Virus record (IMG/VR): IMGVR_UViG_2681813236_000014
Coordinates: 1-11,010 of that record
Reading direction: 5' to 3' (one strand)
DNA length: 11,010 bases
Source of the DNA: a virus
Lineage: Duplodnaviria > Heunggongvirae > Uroviricota > Caudoviricetes
Shown here: positions 723 through 9,983 of the stretch, piece by piece
Position numbering within the stretch: the first letter of the stretch is position 1
Layout of the letters: each line of letters starts with the position of its first letter
Notes under the pieces: generated by a model
What the model was told of the DNA's origin: nothing
The model's database searches: none
What the model saw: the letters and a program-made list of their open reading frames with translations, nothing else
Made by a program: the position numbers and the translations under genes

Positions 723-1943
723 GTGGGAAAAGCACTAAACAAACTGAGCGATTCGACGTTAAAAAAATTGGCGGCTGTCCAGGCAGAAAAAGAGCGTTTT
801 TACTCCGACGGGGGCGGGCTGGAGATTAAACACTCAAAGGGCGGCAAATTAACCTGGTATTTCCGGTACCGAACGGGAGGCCGTGAGGTTGCCGCAGAGC
901 GGTTAAAGCTGGGGGCTTACCCTGAATTGTCGCTGAAAGCCGCAAGGGAAAAACGCACACTGTGCCGGGCATGGCTGGCTGAGGGTAAAAACCCCCGTTA
1001 TGAGTTGTGCGCCACAGTACAGGAAGCACTAAAACCCGTTACGGTGAAGGAAGCGATTAACTACTGGCTGGAGGAATACGCGAAGGATAACCGCAAAGAT
1101 TACATAAAGCTGGTGCAGCGTATGGATAAGCACATCATTTGCCATATTGGGGCAATTCCCCTTGATAAGTGTGATACAAGGCAGTGGATCGCATGTTTTG
1201 ACCGCGTACGAAAAAAAGCACCAGTAGCAGCGGGCCATGTCATGCAGACATGCAAACAGGCGCTAAAGTTTTGCCGCAGGCGGCGCTACGCGTTTAGCAA
1301 CGCCCTGGACGATTTGATCGTTACTGATGTGGGTAAGAGAGCAGAAATCCGCGAGAGAGTGCACAGCAACAGCGAACTAAAAGAAATTCTACGCGCTATT
1401 GATGGTGATGTGTTCGCTCCCTATTACAGTGCGTTAATGCGCTTGTTAATTGTGTTCGGGTGCAGAACGGCAGAGATCAGACTTTCAGAGATCAAAGAAT
1501 GGGACCTGAAAGAAATGTTGTGGACAGTGCCAAAAGAGCACAGCAAAACGAAGGTAACAATATTCCGACCTATTCCTGATGGTATTTTGCCGTTCATTCA
1601 GAAGCTGGTGGAGCAAAACGCACACACTGGGTTATTACTCGGCGAACTGAAAAAAGATACCACGGTGGCGCAATATGGACGAAATGCGCATAAGCGGCTT
1701 AAGCAGGAACACTGGACGCTGCATGATTTCCGACACACGTTTACAACTATGCTGAATGATTTAGGTGTCGATCCGCATATCGTGGAGCACATCACAGCGC
1801 ATCAGATGCCAGGTCAGCAAAAAACCTATAACCATTCACGCTATTTGCAGGCGAAACGGGACGCACTGAATCTATGGGTTGAGCGTCTTGATATGATTGC
1901 AGGATATAATGAAAATATTGTGATATTGAGAGGGATACAATGA
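723..1943 (+). CDS. int: Tyrosine recombinase, P4-type integrase (406 aa, GTG start)
   Basis: N-terminal arm-binding pattern (DGGGLEIKHSKGGKLTWYFRYR); catalytic-region motifs GCRTAEI, HDFRHT and a C-terminal Tyr (KTYNHS); RBS AAGAGGA 7 nt upstream; adjacent to the insertion junction. Confidence 0.9.
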   Translation: MGKALNKLSDSTLKKLAAVQAEKERFYSDGGGLEIKHSKGGKLTWYFRYRTGGREVAAERLKLGAYPELSLKAAREKRTLCRAWLAEGKNPRYELCATVQEALKPVTVKEAINYWLEEYAKDNRKDYIKLVQRMDKHIICHIGAIPLDKCDTRQWIACFDRVRKKAPVAAGHVMQTCKQALKFCRRRRYAFSNALDDLIVTDVGKRAEIRERVHSNSELKEILRAIDGDVFAPYYSALMRLLIVFGCRTAEIRLSEIKEWDLKEMLWTVPKEHSKTKVTIFRPIPDGILPFIQKLVEQNAHTGLLLGELKKDTTVAQYGRNAHKRLKQEHWTLHDFRHTFTTMLNDLGVDPHIVEHITAHQMPGQQKTYNHSRYLQAKRDALNLWVERLDMIAGYNENIVILRGIQ

Positions 1944-2794
1944 CGAAAAAAGTAAATAGTAAAAAAGATTTACCAAAGTCATTTGATTTAGGCAAATATG
2001 ATTGCCTAGAAAACTTGTCGGATAAAGATCTATTTCGCCAATTATATTGGCGACAAGATGATTTAACAATGAAACATTCTGAGATGCCTGAATATGGATT
2101 TATGTTTGGTGCTGAATACCCGTTGCATAATAATTACGGGGATCCATTTGGAGAGCTGAAAGAAGACGATTGGTTTTGTGATAAACAAAAAGAATATGAC
2201 CATAAAGTGCAACCGAAGTTAATTGAGCTAAGTTATGATGATGGAATTAAACCTGTAACAAGATTTGATATATCAATGATTAATAAACTGACTGCGGAAA
2301 GAGGATATTGGAAGGATAAACCAATCATCATAGATAATGAGATGGTTGGAAGTTTAATATCAGAAGATAATGGGATGTTTTGGGCTGTGATGCGTGAACC
2401 AGTGAATCTCCTTTCTGATACATTAGATAATATGCTTGTTTCTGTTGACTTACTACATAACAGAGATGATGAGTTGATTGAAGCGTTTACAAAACTATTA
2501 CCAAAATGGCGTAGTGAACTTTCAATTGTTGAGCCAGACAAACCAATTGCAGGAAGTTGGGAGAGCATACGACGTAAAATTATTGATTATAAGATAATCC
2601 CATTAATTGACTTATTATCTTGGGAGTTGTCTACAGATAGAAAAATTTCATTAGGGGTGCTTGCCGTATCTTTGTATCCTGATGGTGAAAAGGACACCTT
2701 TGCTATTGCTCAGACTGTAAAACCCTTCTTAGAAAAAATAATGCGCAGCGATTCTTTAGAAAAAATAAGAAAAATTTTATCTAATGAAAATTAA
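1940..2794 (+). CDS. Hypothetical protein, AT-rich cargo gene (284 aa), function unknown
   Basis: Long ORF with start overlapping the int stop (ATGA), RBS AGAGGGA. Markedly lower GC than flanking int and alpA. No motif I can assign. Confidence 0.7.
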   Translation: MTKKVNSKKDLPKSFDLGKYDCLENLSDKDLFRQLYWRQDDLTMKHSEMPEYGFMFGAEYPLHNNYGDPFGELKEDDWFCDKQKEYDHKVQPKLIELSYDDGIKPVTRFDISMINKLTAERGYWKDKPIIIDNEMVGSLISEDNGMFWAVMREPVNLLSDTLDNMLVSVDLLHNRDDELIEAFTKLLPKWRSELSIVEPDKPIAGSWESIRRKIIDYKIIPLIDLLSWELSTDRKISLGVLAVSLYPDGEKDTFAIAQTVKPFLEKIMRSDSLEKIRKILSNEN

Positions 2795-2897
2795 TCATGG
2801 AGAACGATAAATTAGAATAAAGTTTATTTTTCCAATATTGCACCAACTGCTATGGTAAATAAGATGCCCTTGTTCGGTTACGTTCGAGGGTGTTTTT

Positions 2898-3122
2898 ATG
2901 AATCAAAATACACAATTTCAATCACTAACAGATCGCGTAATTCGTGAGGATGAATGTCGTAAGTTAACAGGCGTCAGCCGTACTACACGCTACGAACTGG
3001 AGAAGAAAGGGGGCTTTCCGTCTCGCCGTAATCTTGGGGGGCGTTCTGTAGGCTGGTTGCTTTCCGAAGTTATGGACTGGGTGCAAAGCCGTGACCGCGT
3101 TAATTCAGGTAAGGCAGCGTAA
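2898..3122 (+). CDS. alpA: AlpA-family transcriptional regulator / excisionase-like (74 aa)
   Basis: HTH-containing small protein (LTGVSRTTRYELEKKGGFPSRRNLGGRSVGWLLSEVMDWVQS) typical of AlpA family; RBS GAGGG upstream; standard position after int in P4-like and PICI elements. Confidence 0.8.
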   Translation: MNQNTQFQSLTDRVIREDECRKLTGVSRTTRYELEKKGGFPSRRNLGGRSVGWLLSEVMDWVQSRDRVNSGKAA

Positions 3123-3140
3123 AGGGGAGCATATGACATA

Positions 3141-3168
3141 TAAAACAAAGGCGACCGGGGGCGGTCGC
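3141..3168 (-). terminator. Putative intrinsic terminator for the leftward regulator operon
   Basis: Perfect 8-bp GC-rich stem GGCGACCG/CGGTCGCC (3149-3156, 3161-3168) with 4-nt loop. On the minus strand it is followed by a U-rich run (complement of aaaacaaa, 3141-3148); no T-run on the plus strand. Confidence 0.5.
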
Positions 3169-3236
3169 CAATGGATACACACTAAACTTGAACGCATCGC
3201 CAACAATGCCACATTTGCGGCTGGTGGGCAATGTGA

Positions 3237-3416
3237 TCAGTCAGATTTGGTTCGTTCCAAGGTTTGCAACGAGAGCTTTTTCCTGTGCTCTTTAAGGAAT
3301 TTCTCAAGAGCAAACGAACAAGGTGCGAATCTTTCTGATTCATGTTCATGCGCTATATTTTTGCGTCGTCTCTTACGAGTTGGTGATGGTGTTTTGGTTG
3401 ATTCTGTGTCGCTCAT
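3237..3416 (-). CDS. Possible small basic protein (59 aa), below the ORF-track cutoff
   Basis: Manual translation of the minus strand gives MSDTESTKTPSPTRKRRRKNIAHEHESERFAPCSFALEKFLKEHRKKLSLQTLERTKSD with an AGGA RBS 6 nt upstream; sits between the RHH gene and the minus-strand terminator. Hand-derived, so coordinates could be off by a few nt. Confidence 0.3.
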   Translation of the reverse strand: MSDTESTKTPSPTRKRRRKNIAHEHESERFAPCSFALEKFLKEHRKKLSLQTLERTKSD

Positions 3417-3473
3417 GGTGCTGTCCTGTAAAGCAATGCGCCTGCGTTCCTCAAACTATGGCGCTGATAGTGG

Positions 3474-3779
3474 CTATTCCTGCTCTTTGACCTTGCGTCG
3501 CTGGAGTTCTTCACGCGCGACGGTGACGAGTTGCCCGATCTCCTCGGCGGCTTTGACTCCGATTTTTTCCACCTGCGCTAGGGCATCGAGCGAAGAAACC
3601 AGGAGGTTTTCTCCGCTTCCTTCTGCCTGGCGGCGGGCGATTTCACCGCGCATGGCGGTTACTATGAATCCGGCGTTGCTTTCACCGTCCAGTTTTACGG
3701 ATTCCATGCCTTCAATAACATCATGCGGGATCCGAGCTGTCAGTGATTGTGATTTTGCGTTTTTTGAACCTGTAGCCAT
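3474..3779 (-). CDS. Putative ribbon-helix-helix (CopG/Arc-like) DNA-binding regulator, 101 aa; candidate island repressor
   Basis: Strong RBS GAGAGGA 6 nt before the ATG at 3779 (the ORF-track start at 3794 is a TTG without RBS). N-terminus SLTARIPHDVIEGMESV fits a beta-strand/helix RHH pattern. Divergent from the pri operon across an operator-rich region. Confidence 0.6.
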   Translation of the reverse strand: MATGSKNAKSQSLTARIPHDVIEGMESVKLDGESNAGFIVTAMRGEIARRQAEGSGENLLVSSLDALAQVEKIGVKAAEEIGQLVTVAREELQRRKVKEQE

Positions 3780-3800
3780 CTGTAATCCTCTCAATGAAAG

Positions 3801-3877
3801 TGTAAGACAATATACACATAAAAAGTCTTACATAAAAGCATTGACATGTAAGCCACCTATAAATAAAGTTACTTACA
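3801..3877. promoter_or_regulatory. Divergent promoter/operator region: two TGTAAG-N19/20-CTTACA inverted-repeat operators plus rightward promoter (-35 TTGACA 3841-3846, -10 TAAAGT 3864-3869)
   Basis: Seen directly: TGTAAG at 3801-3806 and 3847-3852; CTTACA at 3827-3832 and 3872-3877. The second pair overlaps the promoter elements. Confidence 0.5.
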
Positions 3878-3975
3878 CCTTGTTAATGCAAGGTGCAGAA
3901 ACGACGAAACCCCGCACTGTAGGAGCAGTAACGGGGCTTCTAACCACCAACGATAGCAAGATTATCGAGGCAGCT

Positions 3976-4179
3976 ATGAGAAATCATACCATACACCCGC
4001 AAGGGCGGGACTCGTACAACCTGAATAAATACATCTGGCGTTTTATCGCCCTGAGCACCGCACAACCGCGCGTGATTCACATCGTGGCCACCAGCGAACA
4101 GGAAGCACGCCAGCAATCCCCGGCTGGCTGCGTGATGGTATTCGCCGCCCGTATTCGTCAGGGGGTGTGCCATGCCTGA
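3976..4179 (+). CDS. Small protein (67 aa), first gene of the rightward operon; possibly Icd-like cell-division-inhibitor family (weak recollection)
   Basis: First in-frame ATG after the promoter, RBS GAGG; MRNHTIHPQGRDSYNLNKYIWRFIALSTAQPRVIHIVATSEQEARQQSPAGCVMVFAARIRQGVCHA. The rest of the 362-aa ORF-track frame upstream is antisense to the RHH gene and not credible. Confidence 0.5.
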   Translation: MRNHTIHPQGRDSYNLNKYIWRFIALSTAQPRVIHIVATSEQEARQQSPAGCVMVFAARIRQGVCHA

Positions 4180-4492
4180 TATGTCAAATTACCAGTACCT
4201 GATTAATCCGCATTTTAACTGTGAGCATGATATTGCTAAAAAGATTTATTCCGCTGCGGATGGGGCTACTGACAATATATCAATGGCTGTTGCGTCAATT
4301 GGTAGCCTGATGTGGCATGCGTCAGAAAATGAGGACTATGACGAAAAGGCCATGCGCATTGATATGGGGAATATCGGTTTGTTACTGGCAATGCTTGGAC
4401 ATTTTGATATTTCGTTACGGTGCACCATTGAAAATGCCACAGATGCATTAAATGCTATAAAGAAAGCGAATACTGATTCAAATCGGGGATAA
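4172..4492 (+). CDS. Hypothetical protein (106 aa)
   Basis: Start overlaps the upstream stop (ATGCCTGA), RBS AGGGGG; in operon with the primase; no recognisable motif. Confidence 0.55.
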   Translation: MPDMSNYQYLINPHFNCEHDIAKKIYSAADGATDNISMAVASIGSLMWHASENEDYDEKAMRIDMGNIGLLLAMLGHFDISLRCTIENATDALNAIKKANTDSNRG

Positions 4493-4498
4493 ATAATC

Positions 4499-4798
4499 AT
4501 GAGAACGTATTTATCTGGCTTGACTGCCAGCGGTTATGCACACCCCCAAATTATCCCCGGCGCTATTTATCTGGATAAGAACGGTAACAGAGTAACGGTA
4601 AAAGAACTGATGTTTGACCGTGTGTATTTTATCCGTGATGGCTATTCATTTCTTAGTTCGCTGAACGTGGAGATCTTTATTAGCAGATTCAGGCGGGAAA
4701 TCCCGCTTTCCAGAAATAACCATGTGTCATGTATGGATGTTGATAAAAAACTACAGGAACTAAAAAACATGATTGCCGCGTGGAGAGAGCAGAAATGA
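4499..4798 (+). CDS. Hypothetical protein (99 aa)
   Basis: Stop overlaps the primase ATG at 4795 (ATGA), suggesting translational coupling; no recognisable motif. Confidence 0.55.
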   Translation: MRTYLSGLTASGYAHPQIIPGAIYLDKNGNRVTVKELMFDRVYFIRDGYSFLSSLNVEIFISRFRREIPLSRNNHVSCMDVDKKLQELKNMIAAWREQK

Positions 4799-6612
4799 AA
4801 AAAGCGCCAAATTTAAAACACCAGCCGCGTGACAAAATGACGGAAGTCATCATTTTTGCGGGTAGTGATGCGTGGGCACATGCGAAACAGTGGCAGGAAC
4901 AGGACGGGCGACTGGCTGGCGATAACGTGCCACCTGTCTGGCTTGGAGAGCAACAACTTGCCGAACTGGACAACCTGCAAATCGTACCGGACGGACGCTA
5001 TCGCGTGCGTCTCTATCAGGCGGGGTTATTGCGGCCGGGGCTTGTTAATACCATCGGGCAGAAACTGGCAGTGGCAGGTGTCAGGGATGCTGATTATTAC
5101 CCTGAAGGAATGCACAGCCAGAAACGGGAGAACTGGCGCGAATATCTGGAACGTGAACGGGCAGAGCAGGCGGAAAAGAAAAAGGTAGTTGAACTGCCTG
5201 TAAAGAAAAAAGAGCGGGTAAAAGACGATAACGCGTCATCACTGGCGCTTAACCAGATGGGAGCAAGTCAACGCGGCGAAGTTCTCCTGGCACATTATGG
5301 CGGTGAACTGGCGATTCATGCTGACTCTGACACTGTTCACCATTACAACGGCGTTGTATGGGAGCCAGTACAGGATAAAGAATTACAGCGAGCTATGGCA
5401 CAGATTTTCATTGATGCGGAGATCAGCTATTCGCAGAACGCCATTAAATCGGCGGTCGATACCATGAAGTTAAGTTTGCCTGTAATGGGGAATACAGCCC
5501 GTAACCTGATTGGATTCAGTAACGGGGTATTTGATACCAGAACAGGTAATTTTCGGGAGCATAACAAAAACGACTGGTTGTTAATTGCCAGTGAATTACC
5601 TTTCAGCCCACCAGCAGAGGGGGAAACGCTGGCAACACATGCGCCGAATTTCTGGAAGTGGTTACGCCGTTCGGTGGCTGAGAATGACCGCAAGGCGGAT
5701 CGCGTACTGGCTGCATTATTCATGGTGCTGGCGAACCGGTACGACTGGCAGTTATTCATTGAGGTAACAGGTCCAGGGGGAAGTGGTAAAAGCGTGATGG
5801 CGGAGATTTGCACCATGCTGGCGGGTAAGGCCAACACAGTATCGGCAAGCATGAAGGCGCTGGAAGATGCAAGGGAACGCGCGTTAGTGGTTGGCTTTTC
5901 GCTGATTATCATGCCGGATATGACCCGCTACGCTGGTGATGGGGCAGGGATTAAGGCTATTACAGGCGGTGACAAGGTGGCAATTGACCCGAAACACAAA
6001 GCCCCCTACTCAACGCGTATTCCGGCAGTAGTGCTGGCGGTTAACAATAACGCCATGTCATTCAGTGACCGCAGCGGGGGGATCTCACGTCGTCGGGTGA
6101 TATTCAATTTTTCGGAAGTTGTACCGGAGAACGAACGTGATCCAATGCTGGCGGAAAAAATAGAAGGTGAGCTGGCGGTAGTGATTCGCCATCTGCTTAC
6201 ACGGTTTGCTGACCAGGACGAAGCCAGACGCCTGTTATATGAGCAGCAGAAATCTGAAGAAGCACTGGCGATAAAGCGAGAGGGGGATTCGCTGGTGGAC
6301 TTCTGCGGCTATCTCATGGCGTCGGTAATGTGTGATGGCCTGTTAGTGGGTAATGCTGAAATTGTGCCATTCAGCCCACGCAGGTATCTCTATCATGCCT
6401 ATCTGGCTTATATGAGGGCACATGGGTTTGGTAAACCTGTAACACTGACGCGCTTCGGTAAAGATATGCCGGGGGCAATGGCGGAATATGGCAGGGAGTA
6501 TATGAAACGGAAAACGAAGCACGGTTTGCGTTCAAACGTGACACTGACGGAGGAATCAGAAGACTGGATGCCATCATGTGTATCGGTCACTAATGACGAT
6601 AGCAAAAATTAA
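4795..6612 (+). CDS. P4-family primase/helicase (replication initiator, pri-rep), ~605 aa
   Basis: Walker A GPGGSGKS (5769-5792) in the C-terminal helicase-like domain; large N-terminal domain; iteron origin immediately downstream. Start chosen at the ATG at 4795 (RBS GGAGAG, ATGA overlap) rather than the GTG at 4780. Confidence 0.88.
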   Translation: MKKAPNLKHQPRDKMTEVIIFAGSDAWAHAKQWQEQDGRLAGDNVPPVWLGEQQLAELDNLQIVPDGRYRVRLYQAGLLRPGLVNTIGQKLAVAGVRDADYYPEGMHSQKRENWREYLERERAEQAEKKKVVELPVKKKERVKDDNASSLALNQMGASQRGEVLLAHYGGELAIHADSDTVHHYNGVVWEPVQDKELQRAMAQIFIDAEISYSQNAIKSAVDTMKLSLPVMGNTARNLIGFSNGVFDTRTGNFREHNKNDWLLIASELPFSPPAEGETLATHAPNFWKWLRRSVAENDRKADRVLAALFMVLANRYDWQLFIEVTGPGGSGKSVMAEICTMLAGKANTVSASMKALEDARERALVVGFSLIIMPDMTRYAGDGAGIKAITGGDKVAIDPKHKAPYSTRIPAVVLAVNNNAMSFSDRSGGISRRRVIFNFSEVVPENERDPMLAEKIEGELAVVIRHLLTRFADQDEARRLLYEQQKSEEALAIKREGDSLVDFCGYLMASVMCDGLLVGNAEIVPFSPRRYLYHAYLAYMRAHGFGKPVTLTRFGKDMPGAMAEYGREYMKRKTKHGLRSNVTLTEESEDWMPSCVSVTNDDSKN

Positions 6613-6620
6613 ACTTATGG

Positions 6621-6850
6621 AATAACTGTTCACCACTGTTCACCCCGTCATAAATGTCTTTTATATCATTATATTATAGGGTGAACAGTTATTTATGAAC
6701 TGTTCACCAAACTATTCACTGTTCACCTTTTTGATTGTTTATTGAGCTGCAAGGGTGAACAGTGGTGAACAGTTGGTGAATAGTTTTTGTGAAACTGTTC
6801 ACCCCTTAACATTATGAATTGAAAGAGAAAATAGCAAAAGGTGAACACGT
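6621..6850. repeat. Iteron cluster / putative origin of replication
   Basis: About 10 copies of the 10-mer ACTGTTCACC in both orientations: direct at 6625, 6635, 6699, 6718, 6794; inverted GGTGAACAGT at 6680, 6754, 6764, plus degenerate copies at 6775 and 6840. An AT-rich stretch lies between them (6645-6679). Confidence 0.75.
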
Positions 6851-6955
6851 GAAGGGTTAAAATACAAAAATTTTATTACAGCATGGAATATTAAGTTTTA
6901 GCCGACAGGTAGTTAGCCATAAGAGGATATTTGTCGCTTAGTATTACGTACATAA

Positions 6956-6980
6956 CAGCAAACACTTTTCTGGTTTGCTG
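6956..6980 (-). terminator. Possible terminator hairpin downstream of the HEPN-like gene
   Basis: 8-bp stem CAGCAAAC/GTTTGCTG with 9-nt loop; flanking U-run on the minus strand is weak. Confidence 0.3.
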
Positions 6981-7003
6981 GATTAATAGATAAGCGCTAT
7001 AAG

Positions 7004-7717
7004 TTAGTTAGTTTTGAAAAATTTATTGAATAACTCTAAGCTTTCAGGATGTATATATTGAGTAGGGTAACTGATACGTTGTGAGCGTCCAATTTTTATT
7101 GTGTTTTTTTTCGTCTTCCCAAAAAATAGATTCTTCCATGTTAAAATGTTTCCGTGATTATATTTATTGTCTTTTAATCGCTTTTCCAAATAACCATCTG
7201 TGATTTTATATTTATGTGGCGGTACATTCCTTGAGTGCTCAATTTTCCGTAATTCTACTTCTAGCATATCTATTAGCTCACCTTTAGGGGTTTTGAGTTG
7301 ATAATTTAGTAAGCGGCAGTATCTGCGTAATTCCCATACAGTTCTATCTAATGTAATAATTTCAAACCCATTAGTATACATGACTTTTTGGAAGTATCTA
7401 TTTGGTCCTTGGTCATTTAGATACTCTATGAAATATATGCTTTTATCACTCAGATCTAGTTTAATATATGGAATATCATTAATTTTTTTAATTCCTGCAA
7501 CAAGATCATGTCCAATATTTTTAACAGGGATTCTATTAAAAATAAGAATGCATTTTATATATTTTTCAATTGCTTGTTGAGACATCCATAAAAATTGGAA
7601 AGGAAGATTGTTTTTAAAGCAAATACGAGCAGTTAGATAATCTTGATCAGCCATGTCTCTGAAAGATCTTTTAGCCGCATTATTCAGAAAAATTTTTTGA
7701 GTATCAGTAAGTTCCAT
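7004..7717 (-). CDS. AT-rich cargo protein with HEPN-like N-terminal domain (237 aa); candidate RNase-type defense/abortive-infection effector
   Basis: RBS AGGAAG; N-terminal helices with HEPN-like pattern (AAKRSFRDMADQDYLTARI...QQAIEKYIKCIL...NIGHDLVAGIKKI); roughly 30% GC by eye versus ~50% in flanks; opposite strand to surrounding island genes. Confidence 0.7.
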   Translation of the reverse strand: MELTDTQKIFLNNAAKRSFRDMADQDYLTARICFKNNLPFQFLWMSQQAIEKYIKCILIFNRIPVKNIGHDLVAGIKKINDIPYIKLDLSDKSIYFIEYLNDQGPNRYFQKVMYTNGFEIITLDRTVWELRRYCRLLNYQLKTPKGELIDMLEVELRKIEHSRNVPPHKYKITDGYLEKRLKDNKYNHGNILTWKNLFFGKTKKNTIKIGRSQRISYPTQYIHPESLELFNKFFKTN

Positions 7718-8073: not shown

Positions 8074-9983
8074 ATCACTGGTACACCATTAAGGCGGCGG
8101 ATGTTCGCGGAGCGGCGGATATATCTATCTATGAGGAGATTGGCGGCTTCGGTGTTACTGCAAAGCAGTTCGCGGAAGACCTGAAAGCCCTTGGCGATGT
8201 TTCACATATCAATCTGAGGATCCATTCACCAGGTGGTGATGTGTTTGAAGGCATCGCCATCTATAACCTGCTACGGAATCATCCGGCAGACATTACGGTT
8301 TATATCGATGGTGTTGCGGCTTCAATGGCTTCGGTTGTCGCAATGGCTGGCGATCGTGTTGTTATGCCGGAGAACGCCATGATGATGATCCATAAGCCGT
8401 GGGGTATCTCTGGCGGAAATGCTGGCGATATGCGTGATTATGCTGATTTGCTGGATAAGGTGGAAACCGTGTTAATCCCTGCTTATGCCAGAAAAACGGG
8501 CAAATCAGCACAGGAAATTACCGCCATGCTGGAGGATGAAACCTGGATGGATGGGAAAGAATGCCTTAAGCACGGTTTTGCTGATGAATTGTTGCCATCC
8601 GTCAGAGCAATGGCGCGAATTGAATCGAAACGCACAGGAGATTTTTTACATATGCCGGAAACCATTAAAGGAATGATTACACCGCCACAGGGAGCGGCAA
8701 ATATTGCTGGTAATGAACAGAAGCGCATCAATGGAATAAGTGAAGTGTTTAGCTTGTTCGGCAGTCGTTACGACGGGATCAAAATGGCGTGTCTGGAAGA
8801 TGCATCATGTACACCGGAAATGGCCCGTGAAAAGCTGTTGAACGAGCTGGGGCGCGAGTCCACGCCATCCAATAAAAATACCTCGCCTCATATCTATGCC
8901 GGAAACGGAAACATAACAGGTGATGCAATTCGTCAGGGGCTTTATTCCCGTCTTGGGTATGAACGCCCTGAACGAGGCAACCCTTACGCGATGATGAGCC
9001 TTTTTGAAATGGCCCAGGCATCACTGGTTGATCGTGGTATCACTGTGAGCGGTTTTATTAATCGCTCGCAGGTTGTTAATGCGGCTTTTACACACAGCAG
9101 CAGCGATTTTTCTCATATTCTGGCTGGTGGCGCTGAGAAATCAGTACTGAAAGGCTGGCAGGACAGCGGCGAAACGTTCCAGAAATGGACGCGTACCGGT
9201 TCGCTTTCAAACTTTCATGAAGCAAAGCGCGTTGGTCTGAATGGTTTTTCAAAGCTGGATAAAGTACCGGAAGGCGCGGAATATAAATACATCACCACTA
9301 GCGATAAAGGTGTACCTATTGCGCTGGCCACGTACGGGAATATTTTTTCCGTTACCCGTCAGGCCATTATCAACGATGACCTGACCCAGTTAACTACAAT
9401 CCCCATGGCGATGGGACGCGCAGCTGCCAGAACAGTTGGCAATCTGGTTTATCTCCTGTTAACCAGCAACGGCAAGTTTACGGATGGTAAAGCGTTATTC
9501 CATGCCGATCATAAAAATCTTATTGCGAAGGATATGGACATGGAGGGGCTTAACGAAGCCCGTAAGCTGATGCGCCTCCAGGAAGACGCTAACGGCGATT
9601 CGCTGAATATTACCCCCGCATTTGTCCTGGTCCCCGCCGCGCTGGAGTCTGCCGCACATCGCGCCATTCTGTCATCGTCATCACTCTTTCCGGTTGATGG
9701 CGTGGGCACTATCAATCAGAACCCCGGCATCATTAACGTGGTGAAAGATATGGCGGAGGTAATCGTTGAGCCACGTCTTGATAAAGCCAATAACAAGGAG
9801 TGGTATGTGGCAGCGGCGAAGGGTATGGACACGATAGAGGTCGCTTATCTTGATGGTATTGATACGCCATATCTTGAGGAGCAGGAGGGCTTTACTGTTG
9901 ATGGCGTCGCCTGGAAGGTGCGCATAGATGCAGGTGTCGCGGCCCTCGACTATCGCGGATTACTGAAATCGAGTGGAGCATGA
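8070..9983 (+). CDS. Prohead protease (ClpP/S14-like) fused to major capsid protein (637 aa)
   Basis: N-terminus has ClpP-like motifs (IHSPGGDV, GVAASMASVVAMAGD, MMIHKPWG). C-terminal ~400 aa resemble phage major head proteins (DGKALFHADHKN recalls Mu gpT-like DGKPFFAADHP). Strong RBS; intrinsic terminator immediately downstream. Confidence 0.85.
   Translation: MNHWYTIKAADVRGAADISIYEEIGGFGVTAKQFAEDLKALGDVSHINLRIHSPGGDVFEGIAIYNLLRNHPADITVYIDGVAASMASVVAMAGDRVVMPENAMMMIHKPWGISGGNAGDMRDYADLLDKVETVLIPAYARKTGKSAQEITAMLEDETWMDGKECLKHGFADELLPSVRAMARIESKRTGDFLHMPETIKGMITPPQGAANIAGNEQKRINGISEVFSLFGSRYDGIKMACLEDASCTPEMAREKLLNELGRESTPSNKNTSPHIYAGNGNITGDAIRQGLYSRLGYERPERGNPYAMMSLFEMAQASLVDRGITVSGFINRSQVVNAAFTHSSSDFSHILAGGAEKSVLKGWQDSGETFQKWTRTGSLSNFHEAKRVGLNGFSKLDKVPEGAEYKYITTSDKGVPIALATYGNIFSVTRQAIINDDLTQLTTIPMAMGRAAARTVGNLVYLLLTSNGKFTDGKALFHADHKNLIAKDMDMEGLNEARKLMRLQEDANGDSLNITPAFVLVPAALESAAHRAILSSSSLFPVDGVGTINQNPGIINVVKDMAEVIVEPRLDKANNKEWYVAAAKGMDTIEVAYLDGIDTPYLEEQEGFTVDGVAWKVRIDAGVAALDYRGLLKSSGA

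Follow-up and report, generated by a model that had tools for sequence, protein, structure and literature searches.

An array of P4-type octamers 3' of pri-rep as a probable replication origin of a Gram-negative PICI

Background

In the plasmid origins that depend on RepA, pi or TrfA, the repeats are direct and 17-22 bp long, DnaA boxes are present, and the Rep protein, which is not a helicase, recruits the host DnaB; such plasmid iterons commonly serve copy control as well as initiation. In satellite phage P4, the binding of the alpha protein to DNA is controlled through Cnr.

The GenBank record of P4 (X51522) uses the name 'ori type 1 repeat' for the octamer TGTTCACC, of which it marks copies in the origin as well as in crr, the 'cis required region for replication'. 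The origin holds six annotated type 1 copies (9310-9413); in ori1, three sites in tandem are separated by 14 bp from an inverted site, and 35 bp of AT-rich DNA lead from there to a final tandem pair. The crr, located directly after the alpha stop codon and about 4.7 kb from ori, consists of two 120-bp direct repeats with five octamers each. Judging from its title, the paper of Yeo et al. 2002 identifies PDB 1ka8 as the structure of the P4 origin-binding domain.

Regarding the phage-inducible chromosomal islands (PICIs) of Gram-negative bacteria, the replication of EcCICFT073 was reported to require both rep and a putative ori site, and rep together with the adjacent putative ori site sufficed to replicate a plasmid (Fillol-Salom et al. 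2018, PMC6092414). In the same work, the P4 and PICI initiators were treated as only distantly related, and a further type of origin is found there which consists of an AT-rich region with a set of short iterons on either side, placed directly downstream of the gene for the initiator-helicase; the supplements of this paper contain no iteron sequences.

The element and its distribution in Escherichia coli

The stretch of DNA analysed here, hereafter the window, is 11,010 nucleotides long. Its features, by window position, are the following.

723-1943: integrase
2898-3122: AlpA-like excisionase/regulator
4780-6612, plus strand: pri-rep, the initiator gene, annotated as a DNA primase (maximal ORF of 610 aa; the RefSeq start is at 4795)
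6283-6573, plus strand: region of pri-rep coding for the origin-binding domain (aa 502-598; phmmer match to PDB 1ka8)
7004-7717, minus strand: HEPN-domain gene, 237 aa
8070-9983: ClpP-like prohead protease-major capsid fusion, 637 aa
10154-10726: DUF1441/small-terminase-like protein (phrog_141)

The element thus carries the PICI core set as listed in PMC10085698, namely int, an alpA-type regulator, pri-rep, a capsid-morphogenesis gene and a small terminase gene. Portal and large terminase genes were not found within the 11-kb window, nor did a scan of its ORFs of at least 50 aa reveal sid, delta or psu. A complete head and packaging set is encoded by the related vB_KppS-Ant (16.5 kb). Besides, the HEPN gene lies in a low-GC segment (26-34%) between the putative origin and the capsid and packaging genes, gives no match to PHROG, and looks like accessory cargo in a PICI hot spot, possibly with an anti-phage role.

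Among 5426 complete E. coli genomes, 1201 (about a fifth) contain a match to the segment comprising the primase gene and the array (4780-7000), and 631 of these 1201 genomes cover at least 80% of it; in one matching genome, the segment resides in an island beside tRNA-Ile. In E. coli CFSAN064035, where positions 12297-15400 of the retrieved locus were compared with window 723-4180, the integrase gene measures 1428 nt versus 1221 nt and the left arm is different. Despite this different integrase and left arm, the primase-origin-HEPN segment is 99.9% identical, and since a near-identical replication segment is coupled there to another integrase and left arm, the comparison indicates that the integration and replication modules would have been exchanged by modular recombination.

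A compact array of twelve sites

The original prediction placed about ten copies of a short repeat, present in both orientations and including two perfect tandem pairs, at 6621-6850. All of this was borne out by the counts, the extent needing only a small correction since the whole feature runs from 6625 to about 6885, a compact region of approximately 260 bp. The octamer TGTTCACC occurs in nine exact copies within 6627-6847, for an expectation of 0.36 (about 0.4) in the whole window, with copies in both orientations. When the longer 10-mer ACTGTTCACC is searched with at most one mismatch, ten matches are found in the 11-kb window, compared to 0.44 expected by chance, and none of 200 shuffled sequences reaches ten; nine of these matches lie in 6625-6803 (eight exact and one with one mismatch), and the tenth lies at 5332 within the upstream ORF. 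The 10-mer forms perfect tandem pairs at 6625-6644 (plus strand) and 6754-6773 (minus strand). Three degenerate copies, TATTCACT (6713-6720), TATTCACC (6775-6782) and GTGAAGGG (6849-6856), bring the nine exact octamers to twelve sites; the two former were added by allowing two mismatches (at 6713 and 6775), and the latter was found through the alignment to relatives.

The array is the sole repeat cluster of the 11-kb window. The same holds for a 34-kb E. coli locus with the same allele, which has no further copy, and for the complete 16.5-kb genome of vB_KppS-Ant, whose initiator is 74.5% identical and which has the post-gene array alone. In a full-text search of the literature, TGTTCACC was matched only by unrelated primer sequences.

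When 6621-6730 is aligned with 6751-6860 in reverse complement, the array proves to be an inverted duplication of a module of about 110 bp. Each module opens with a tandem pair of sites, followed by about 35 bp of AT-rich DNA, an inverted site, 9 bp, and three sites in the first orientation, as follows.

6625-6727, plus strand: module A, alignable with module B (reverse-complemented) as well as P4 ori1 and both P4 crr repeats
6625-6634 and 6635-6644, plus strand: sites 1 and 2 of module A, in tandem
6645-6679: AT-rich spacer A, 35 bp, 77% AT
6680-6689: site 3 of module A, inverted, followed by a 9-bp gap
6699-6708, 6711-6719 (degenerate) and 6718-6727: sites 4 to 6 of module A, direct
6728-6753: central spacer between the inverted modules, 26 bp
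6754-6856, minus strand: module B, inverted copy of module A
6754-6763, 6764-6773 and 6775-6784 (one mismatch): sites 7 to 9 of module B, in tandem, followed by a 9-bp gap
6794-6803: site 10 of module B, in the opposite orientation
6804-6837: AT-rich spacer B, 34 bp, 74% AT
6840-6847: site 11 of module B, an exact octamer
6849-6856: site 12 of module B, degenerate (GTGAAGGG)
about 6855-6885: AT-rich tail TTAAAATACAAAAATTTTATTAC after the last site pair, 77% AT

The AT-rich stretch that had been expected between the repeats is therefore indeed AT-rich, but is not single, two such stretches being present (6645-6679 and 6804-6837). Spacer A, whose length is kept across loci in the alignment of relatives, is a candidate DNA-melting site, while spacer B contains a conserved TTAAC...ATGA motif beside site 10, with T195, A196, T203 and G204 as invariant columns of the alignment. 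The central spacer varies among relatives in both sequence and length, and AT-rich tails comparable to that of the window are found in relatives as well as behind the P4 ori and crr pairs. In terms of base composition, the G+C fraction goes from about 0.5 in the initiator gene to about 0.34 across the array region. A repeat finder also detected imperfect inverted repeats across the array, one of 54 nt at 74% complementarity and one of 35 nt at 83%.

The array sits between convergent 3' ends, those of the initiator gene (6612, plus strand) and of the HEPN-domain gene (7004, minus strand). Promoter-like and terminator-like sites are absent from 6613-7003, DnaA boxes, the IHF consensus and GATC are absent from 6500-7100, and an Rfam scan of the window returned no family match. 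In three E. coli genomes, IS903B has entered the array where site 2 meets spacer A, and 9 bp of target are duplicated, as exemplified by E. coli MLI106K4, where the insertion point is equivalent to window 6639-6647; MLI106K4 and Iso00041 both have the element at 6647. The first tandem pair is thereby split from the remaining sites, and these genomes could represent natural variants with a disrupted origin.

P4 has a second origin (ori2) within alpha. The exact TGTTCACC at 5334, the only one outside the array in the whole window, was considered as a second origin of this sort and rejected. It belongs to a lone intragenic ACTGTTCACC (5332-5341, plus strand) inside the initiator ORF, near which an inverted octamer with one mismatch also lies within this ORF (5302-5309). 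Since the copy encodes T-V-H-H, and these amino acids are conserved in vB_KppS-Ant while the DNA site is absent there, the intragenic copy is probably incidental.

An initiator with the helicase and origin-binding core of P4 alpha

The order of the regions in the initiator is an N-terminal region (aa 1 to about 150), D5_N, the SF3 helicase and a C-terminal origin-binding domain, with D5_N, DUF5906 (SF3 helicase) and Pox_D5 as Pfam matches. It shares 50.7% identity with P4 alpha over aa 150-600 (tblastn), a stretch that spans the helicase and origin-binding domains, and its aa 502-598 match the P4 alpha C-terminal domain of PDB 1ka8 with a phmmer E-value of 1.8e-24.

The N-terminal part is of another kind. 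Whereas the N-terminus of P4 alpha matches Zn_Ribbon_Prim and Toprim_3, the window initiator has neither zinc-ribbon nor Toprim, and its first 160 aa (4780-5259) give no Pfam or NCBIfam match at E <= 1. An AlphaFold single-sequence model of this N-terminal domain (pLDDT 63.5) displays a generic alpha/beta fold with no significant fold match in the PDB; the corresponding model of the origin-binding domain (pLDDT 38) is unusable. The 'primase' label derives from TIGR01613, a model whose match spans the helicase part and stays under the model's own cut-off. The statement that the repeats lie immediately downstream of a primase gene holds for the position, the first site (6625) being 13 bp past the stop codon (6612), but not for the word 'primase', as the protein has no recognisable primase domain.

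Further comparison of seven loci (L040, L017, L015, L022, L030, L033 and L085) with window 4780-6612 shows that the same helicase/origin-binding core and downstream array are joined to three unrelated N-terminal regions:

N-terminal type 1: P4-type zinc-ribbon/Toprim, in proteins of about 790-800 aa
N-terminal type 2: window/EcCICFT073 type, in proteins of about 585-610 aa
N-terminal type 3: beginning ...LFSCxYxWVNG..., in proteins of about 575-585 aa

In the context of alpha control, the two small ORFs that precede the initiator gene were compared by BLASTP with P4 ORF106, and no Cnr homologue was found.

Relatives, site classes and co-variation

A scan of one genome per species yielded 80 Enterobacterales loci that encode relatives, from hosts including Raoultella, Kluyvera, Klebsiella, Pectobacterium, Pantoea, Serratia, Yersinia, Erwinia, Xenorhabdus and Photorhabdus. 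A comparable array directly follows the stop codon in 77 of them, this number being that of the loci with an intact frame and enough downstream sequence. In 65 loci, 4-11 TGTTCACC-like sites are present in the 330-450 bp past the stop codon, with the orientation string of the window (e.g. ++-+++--+--), and flanks of about 7 kb around these same loci contain 0-3 exact copies. Eighteen further loci have the same layout with a different site, which is TGTCTACC in six, TCTCCACC / TGTCCACC in nine and TGTCCGCC in three. Sixteen sequences from different genera and classes align collinearly from the first to the twelfth site, through the two AT-rich spacers, and on into the tail.

When members of the TTCACC class are compared with the window, identity amounts to 67-86% at the sites and to 47-59% in the spacers (Mann-Whitney p = 2e-12). 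More broadly, four lineage-dependent site classes could be distinguished, TTCACC, TCTACC, TCCACC and TCCGCC, and residue 582 of the initiator is the column that co-varies best with them, being G in 62 of 63 TTCACC sequences, R in all TCTACC, N in all TCCACC and R in all TCCGCC sequences, with the caveat that the independent switches are few and occurred among related sequences. Residues 546 and 578-581 also track the site class, and these putative specificity residues would be located on the 'wing' or on the recognition helix. In the same line, TCTACC loci whose helicase cores are 91-93% identical to that of the window have binding domains only 59-63% identical, compared to 73-77% in same-class loci of equal core identity. 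Such co-variation between site class and binding domain would be expected of a C-terminal domain that reads the repeats.

Arrays of this kind were also seen in more distant elements. The complete 43-kb Serratia phage Scapp encodes an alpha-like primase (38% identity), past whose gene a bidirectional GAAAAGTGCAA array with AT-rich DNA is located (4530-4830 of the retrieved locus). Since Scapp is a full phage with a comparable array, the putative post-gene origin plan is not confined to satellites. In Pasteurella Pmp7, a short GTGAA-based set of sites is found after the gene.

The modules of the window and those of P4

P4 ori1 (9310-9413) and module B agree in the order and spacing of their sites, and module A has this layout when read backwards. 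When module A was aligned with the reverse complements of module B and P4 ori1 and with both crr repeats, the five sequences turned out to be collinear, with a mean column identity of 67%. Since both the layout and this multiple alignment match the P4 modules, the window array can be described as two P4-type modules.

The P4-type proteins of Xenorhabdus and Enterobacter are also followed by an array of two inverted modules. Because of these, the direct-repeat crr of P4 itself may be the exception.

EcCICFT073, the reference PICI of E. coli, was located in CFT073, and its Pri-Rep is 48% identical to the window initiator over the full length, N-terminal domain included; in the 250 bp past its pri-rep stop codon, the same twelve-site layout is found with TGTCTACC / TATCTACC as sites. 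As for the definition of a Gram-negative PICI origin (PMC6092414, Fig. 2 legend), the window displays both the array layout and the location immediately 3' of pri-rep (stop 6612, first site 6625), and the putative origin agrees with this definition in each feature that was compared.

Interpretation and rival explanations

Taken together, these data make it very likely that the array (6625-6885) is the cis-acting origin of a Gram-negative PICI, read by the winged-helix domain at the C-terminus of the SF3 helicase whose gene lies just upstream. Both the binding of the initiator and the origin activity are inferred here by homology, the array being, as judged from the alignments, homologous to P4 ori1/crr and to the origin of EcCICFT073. 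More precisely, its designation as a putative P4 alpha-type origin is supported by its crr position and its ori1-like modules. Among the features of such an origin, the octamer copies, the module layout and an initiator combining the binding domain with an SF3 helicase are all found in the window, and a separate ori and crr, as well as a zinc-ribbon plus Toprim primase in the initiator, are lacking. The earlier origin proposal gained support from three sides, all pointing to an initiator-dependent origin just after pri-rep: the identity of the octamer with that of P4 together with the P4-alpha-type origin-binding domain, the collinearity with the region 3' of the EcCICFT073 pri-rep, and some 80 loci in which sites are kept, spacers diverge and site class and binding domain change together. 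Counting against this reading are the annotation of the P4 region in the same position, crr, as cis-required and not as origin, the initiator without a recognisable primase domain, and the degeneracy of two of the twelve sites.

The first of these points leads to the idea that the array would be a crr-like cis element, an enhancer or organiser bound by the initiator, with synthesis starting at a separate origin. The array lies exactly at the P4 crr position, 3' of an alpha-type gene, and its modules align with the crr repeats too. However, a second cluster is lacking from the 11-kb window, from the 34-kb E. coli locus and from the complete 16.5-kb vB_KppS-Ant genome, the order of the sites in the module (2, AT-rich, 1, 3) fits P4 ori1 better than crr, and, in the case of EcCICFT073, rep and the adjacent putative ori replicated a plasmid (PMC6092414), so that this explanation appears quite unlikely. 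A mainly regulatory array, involved in titration or handcuffing for copy control, in autoregulation, in incompatibility or as the operator of a neighbouring gene, could be suspected from the double role of plasmid iterons, from the Cnr control of alpha in P4 and from a dyad symmetry that suits dimeric regulators. We regard it as very unlikely, in view of the placement between convergent 3' ends without a promoter-like site, of the result that BLASTP against P4 ORF106 gave no Cnr homologue, and of a site class that co-varies with the initiator's own binding domain; copy control would moreover supplement the role of origin rather than replace it, and both may coexist.

It is extremely improbable that the array serves as a packaging site (pac/cos-like and bound by a small terminase), that it forms an RNA structure or that its repeats arose by chance. 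Chance is hard to reconcile with an enrichment far beyond expectation. While the island encodes a DUF1441/phrog_141 small-terminase-like protein, and such proteins often bind repeated sites, the same array is found by alpha-type genes in elements with different packaging, i.e. P4-type elements and phage Scapp. The long imperfect inverted repeats could fold as RNA, but the direct tandem copies shift in step with the inverted ones across lineages, a change that pairing does not need, and there is no Rfam match.

Under the preferred reading as an initiator-dependent origin, induction and excision of the island would be followed by the filling of the sites with initiator molecules, the six sites of a module corresponding to one hexamer with its six binding domains. 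Melting of the AT-rich DNA would come next; helicase rings loaded from the two inverted modules would face in opposite directions, and the excised circle would replicate. As a hypothesis, two rings placed head to head are possible because each module has six sites and this helicase family forms hexamers. A broader proposal joins three ideas: that the array is a symmetric two-hexamer loading platform, with head-to-head hexamers and six domains per ring as proposed for other SF3/D5-type helicases; that the ori1/crr arrangement of P4 is a split form, derived from an ancestral two-module origin; and that a residue-encoded specificity code exists, in which site switches are set by few residues (546 and 578-582). 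This joint proposal is speculative, and we would rather doubt it than rely on it. If true, the recognition code would keep co-resident satellites from cross-activating each other, and initiators without a primase domain would depend for priming on the host or the helper phage.

Significance and comparison with known systems

The array is, by all appearances, a well-built example of an already known kind of origin and overturns nothing in current understanding. Modestly new are the octamer identity with P4, the conserved two-module plan of twelve sites, and the site and domain classes that change together. The putative origin and its initiator-site pair would thereby be fixed for a PICI allele matched in about a fifth of the complete E. 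coli genomes, and the layout of PICI origins would be tied directly to the P4 ori/crr system, down to an identical octamer. In addition, the site classes and co-varying residues constitute a ready test set for origin specificity and satellite incompatibility, and a compact origin of 260 bp could serve in satellite-based delivery vectors.

With the iteron plasmids, the array shares repeated putative initiator-binding sites beside AT-rich DNA. It differs from them in that the sites measure 8-10 bp and occur in both orientations, no DnaA box is present, and the initiator is itself an SF3 helicase. An origin of the plasmid type (RepA, pi, TrfA) was therefore rejected, owing to the short bidirectional sites, the absence of a DnaA box and the SF3 helicase initiator. 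With the origin described in PMC6092414 as two short-iteron sets flanking an AT-rich region, the window array has the same logic in common, and a relationship between the site sequences is not expected.

EcCICFT073 is an element of the same type, with int, alpA, DUF4222, pri-rep and capsid-like and packaging genes, and in both elements the array stands immediately 3' of pri-rep and comprises two modules with AT-rich spacers. However, its iteron is TGTCTACC / TATCTACC and not TGTTCACC, its origin-binding domain is only about 29% identical to that of the window, its second spacer is GC-richer, and its origin was tested by experiment, that of the window being a putative one.

Finally, compared to the separate ori and crr of P4, the window has one compact cluster in which two inverted modules lie 26 bp apart, whereas the P4 crr repeats are direct; the window initiator is devoid of the primase region (zinc-ribbon and Toprim) that P4 alpha possesses, and P4 type 2 repeats were not identified in the window element. 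On the side of likeness, the initiator is 51% identical to alpha, with an SF3 helicase and an alpha-type origin-binding domain, the array is located directly 3' of the alpha-type gene, in the position of P4 crr, its modules carry the site order of P4 ori1 though in the crr position, and the core octamer TGTTCACC is identical in the two systems.
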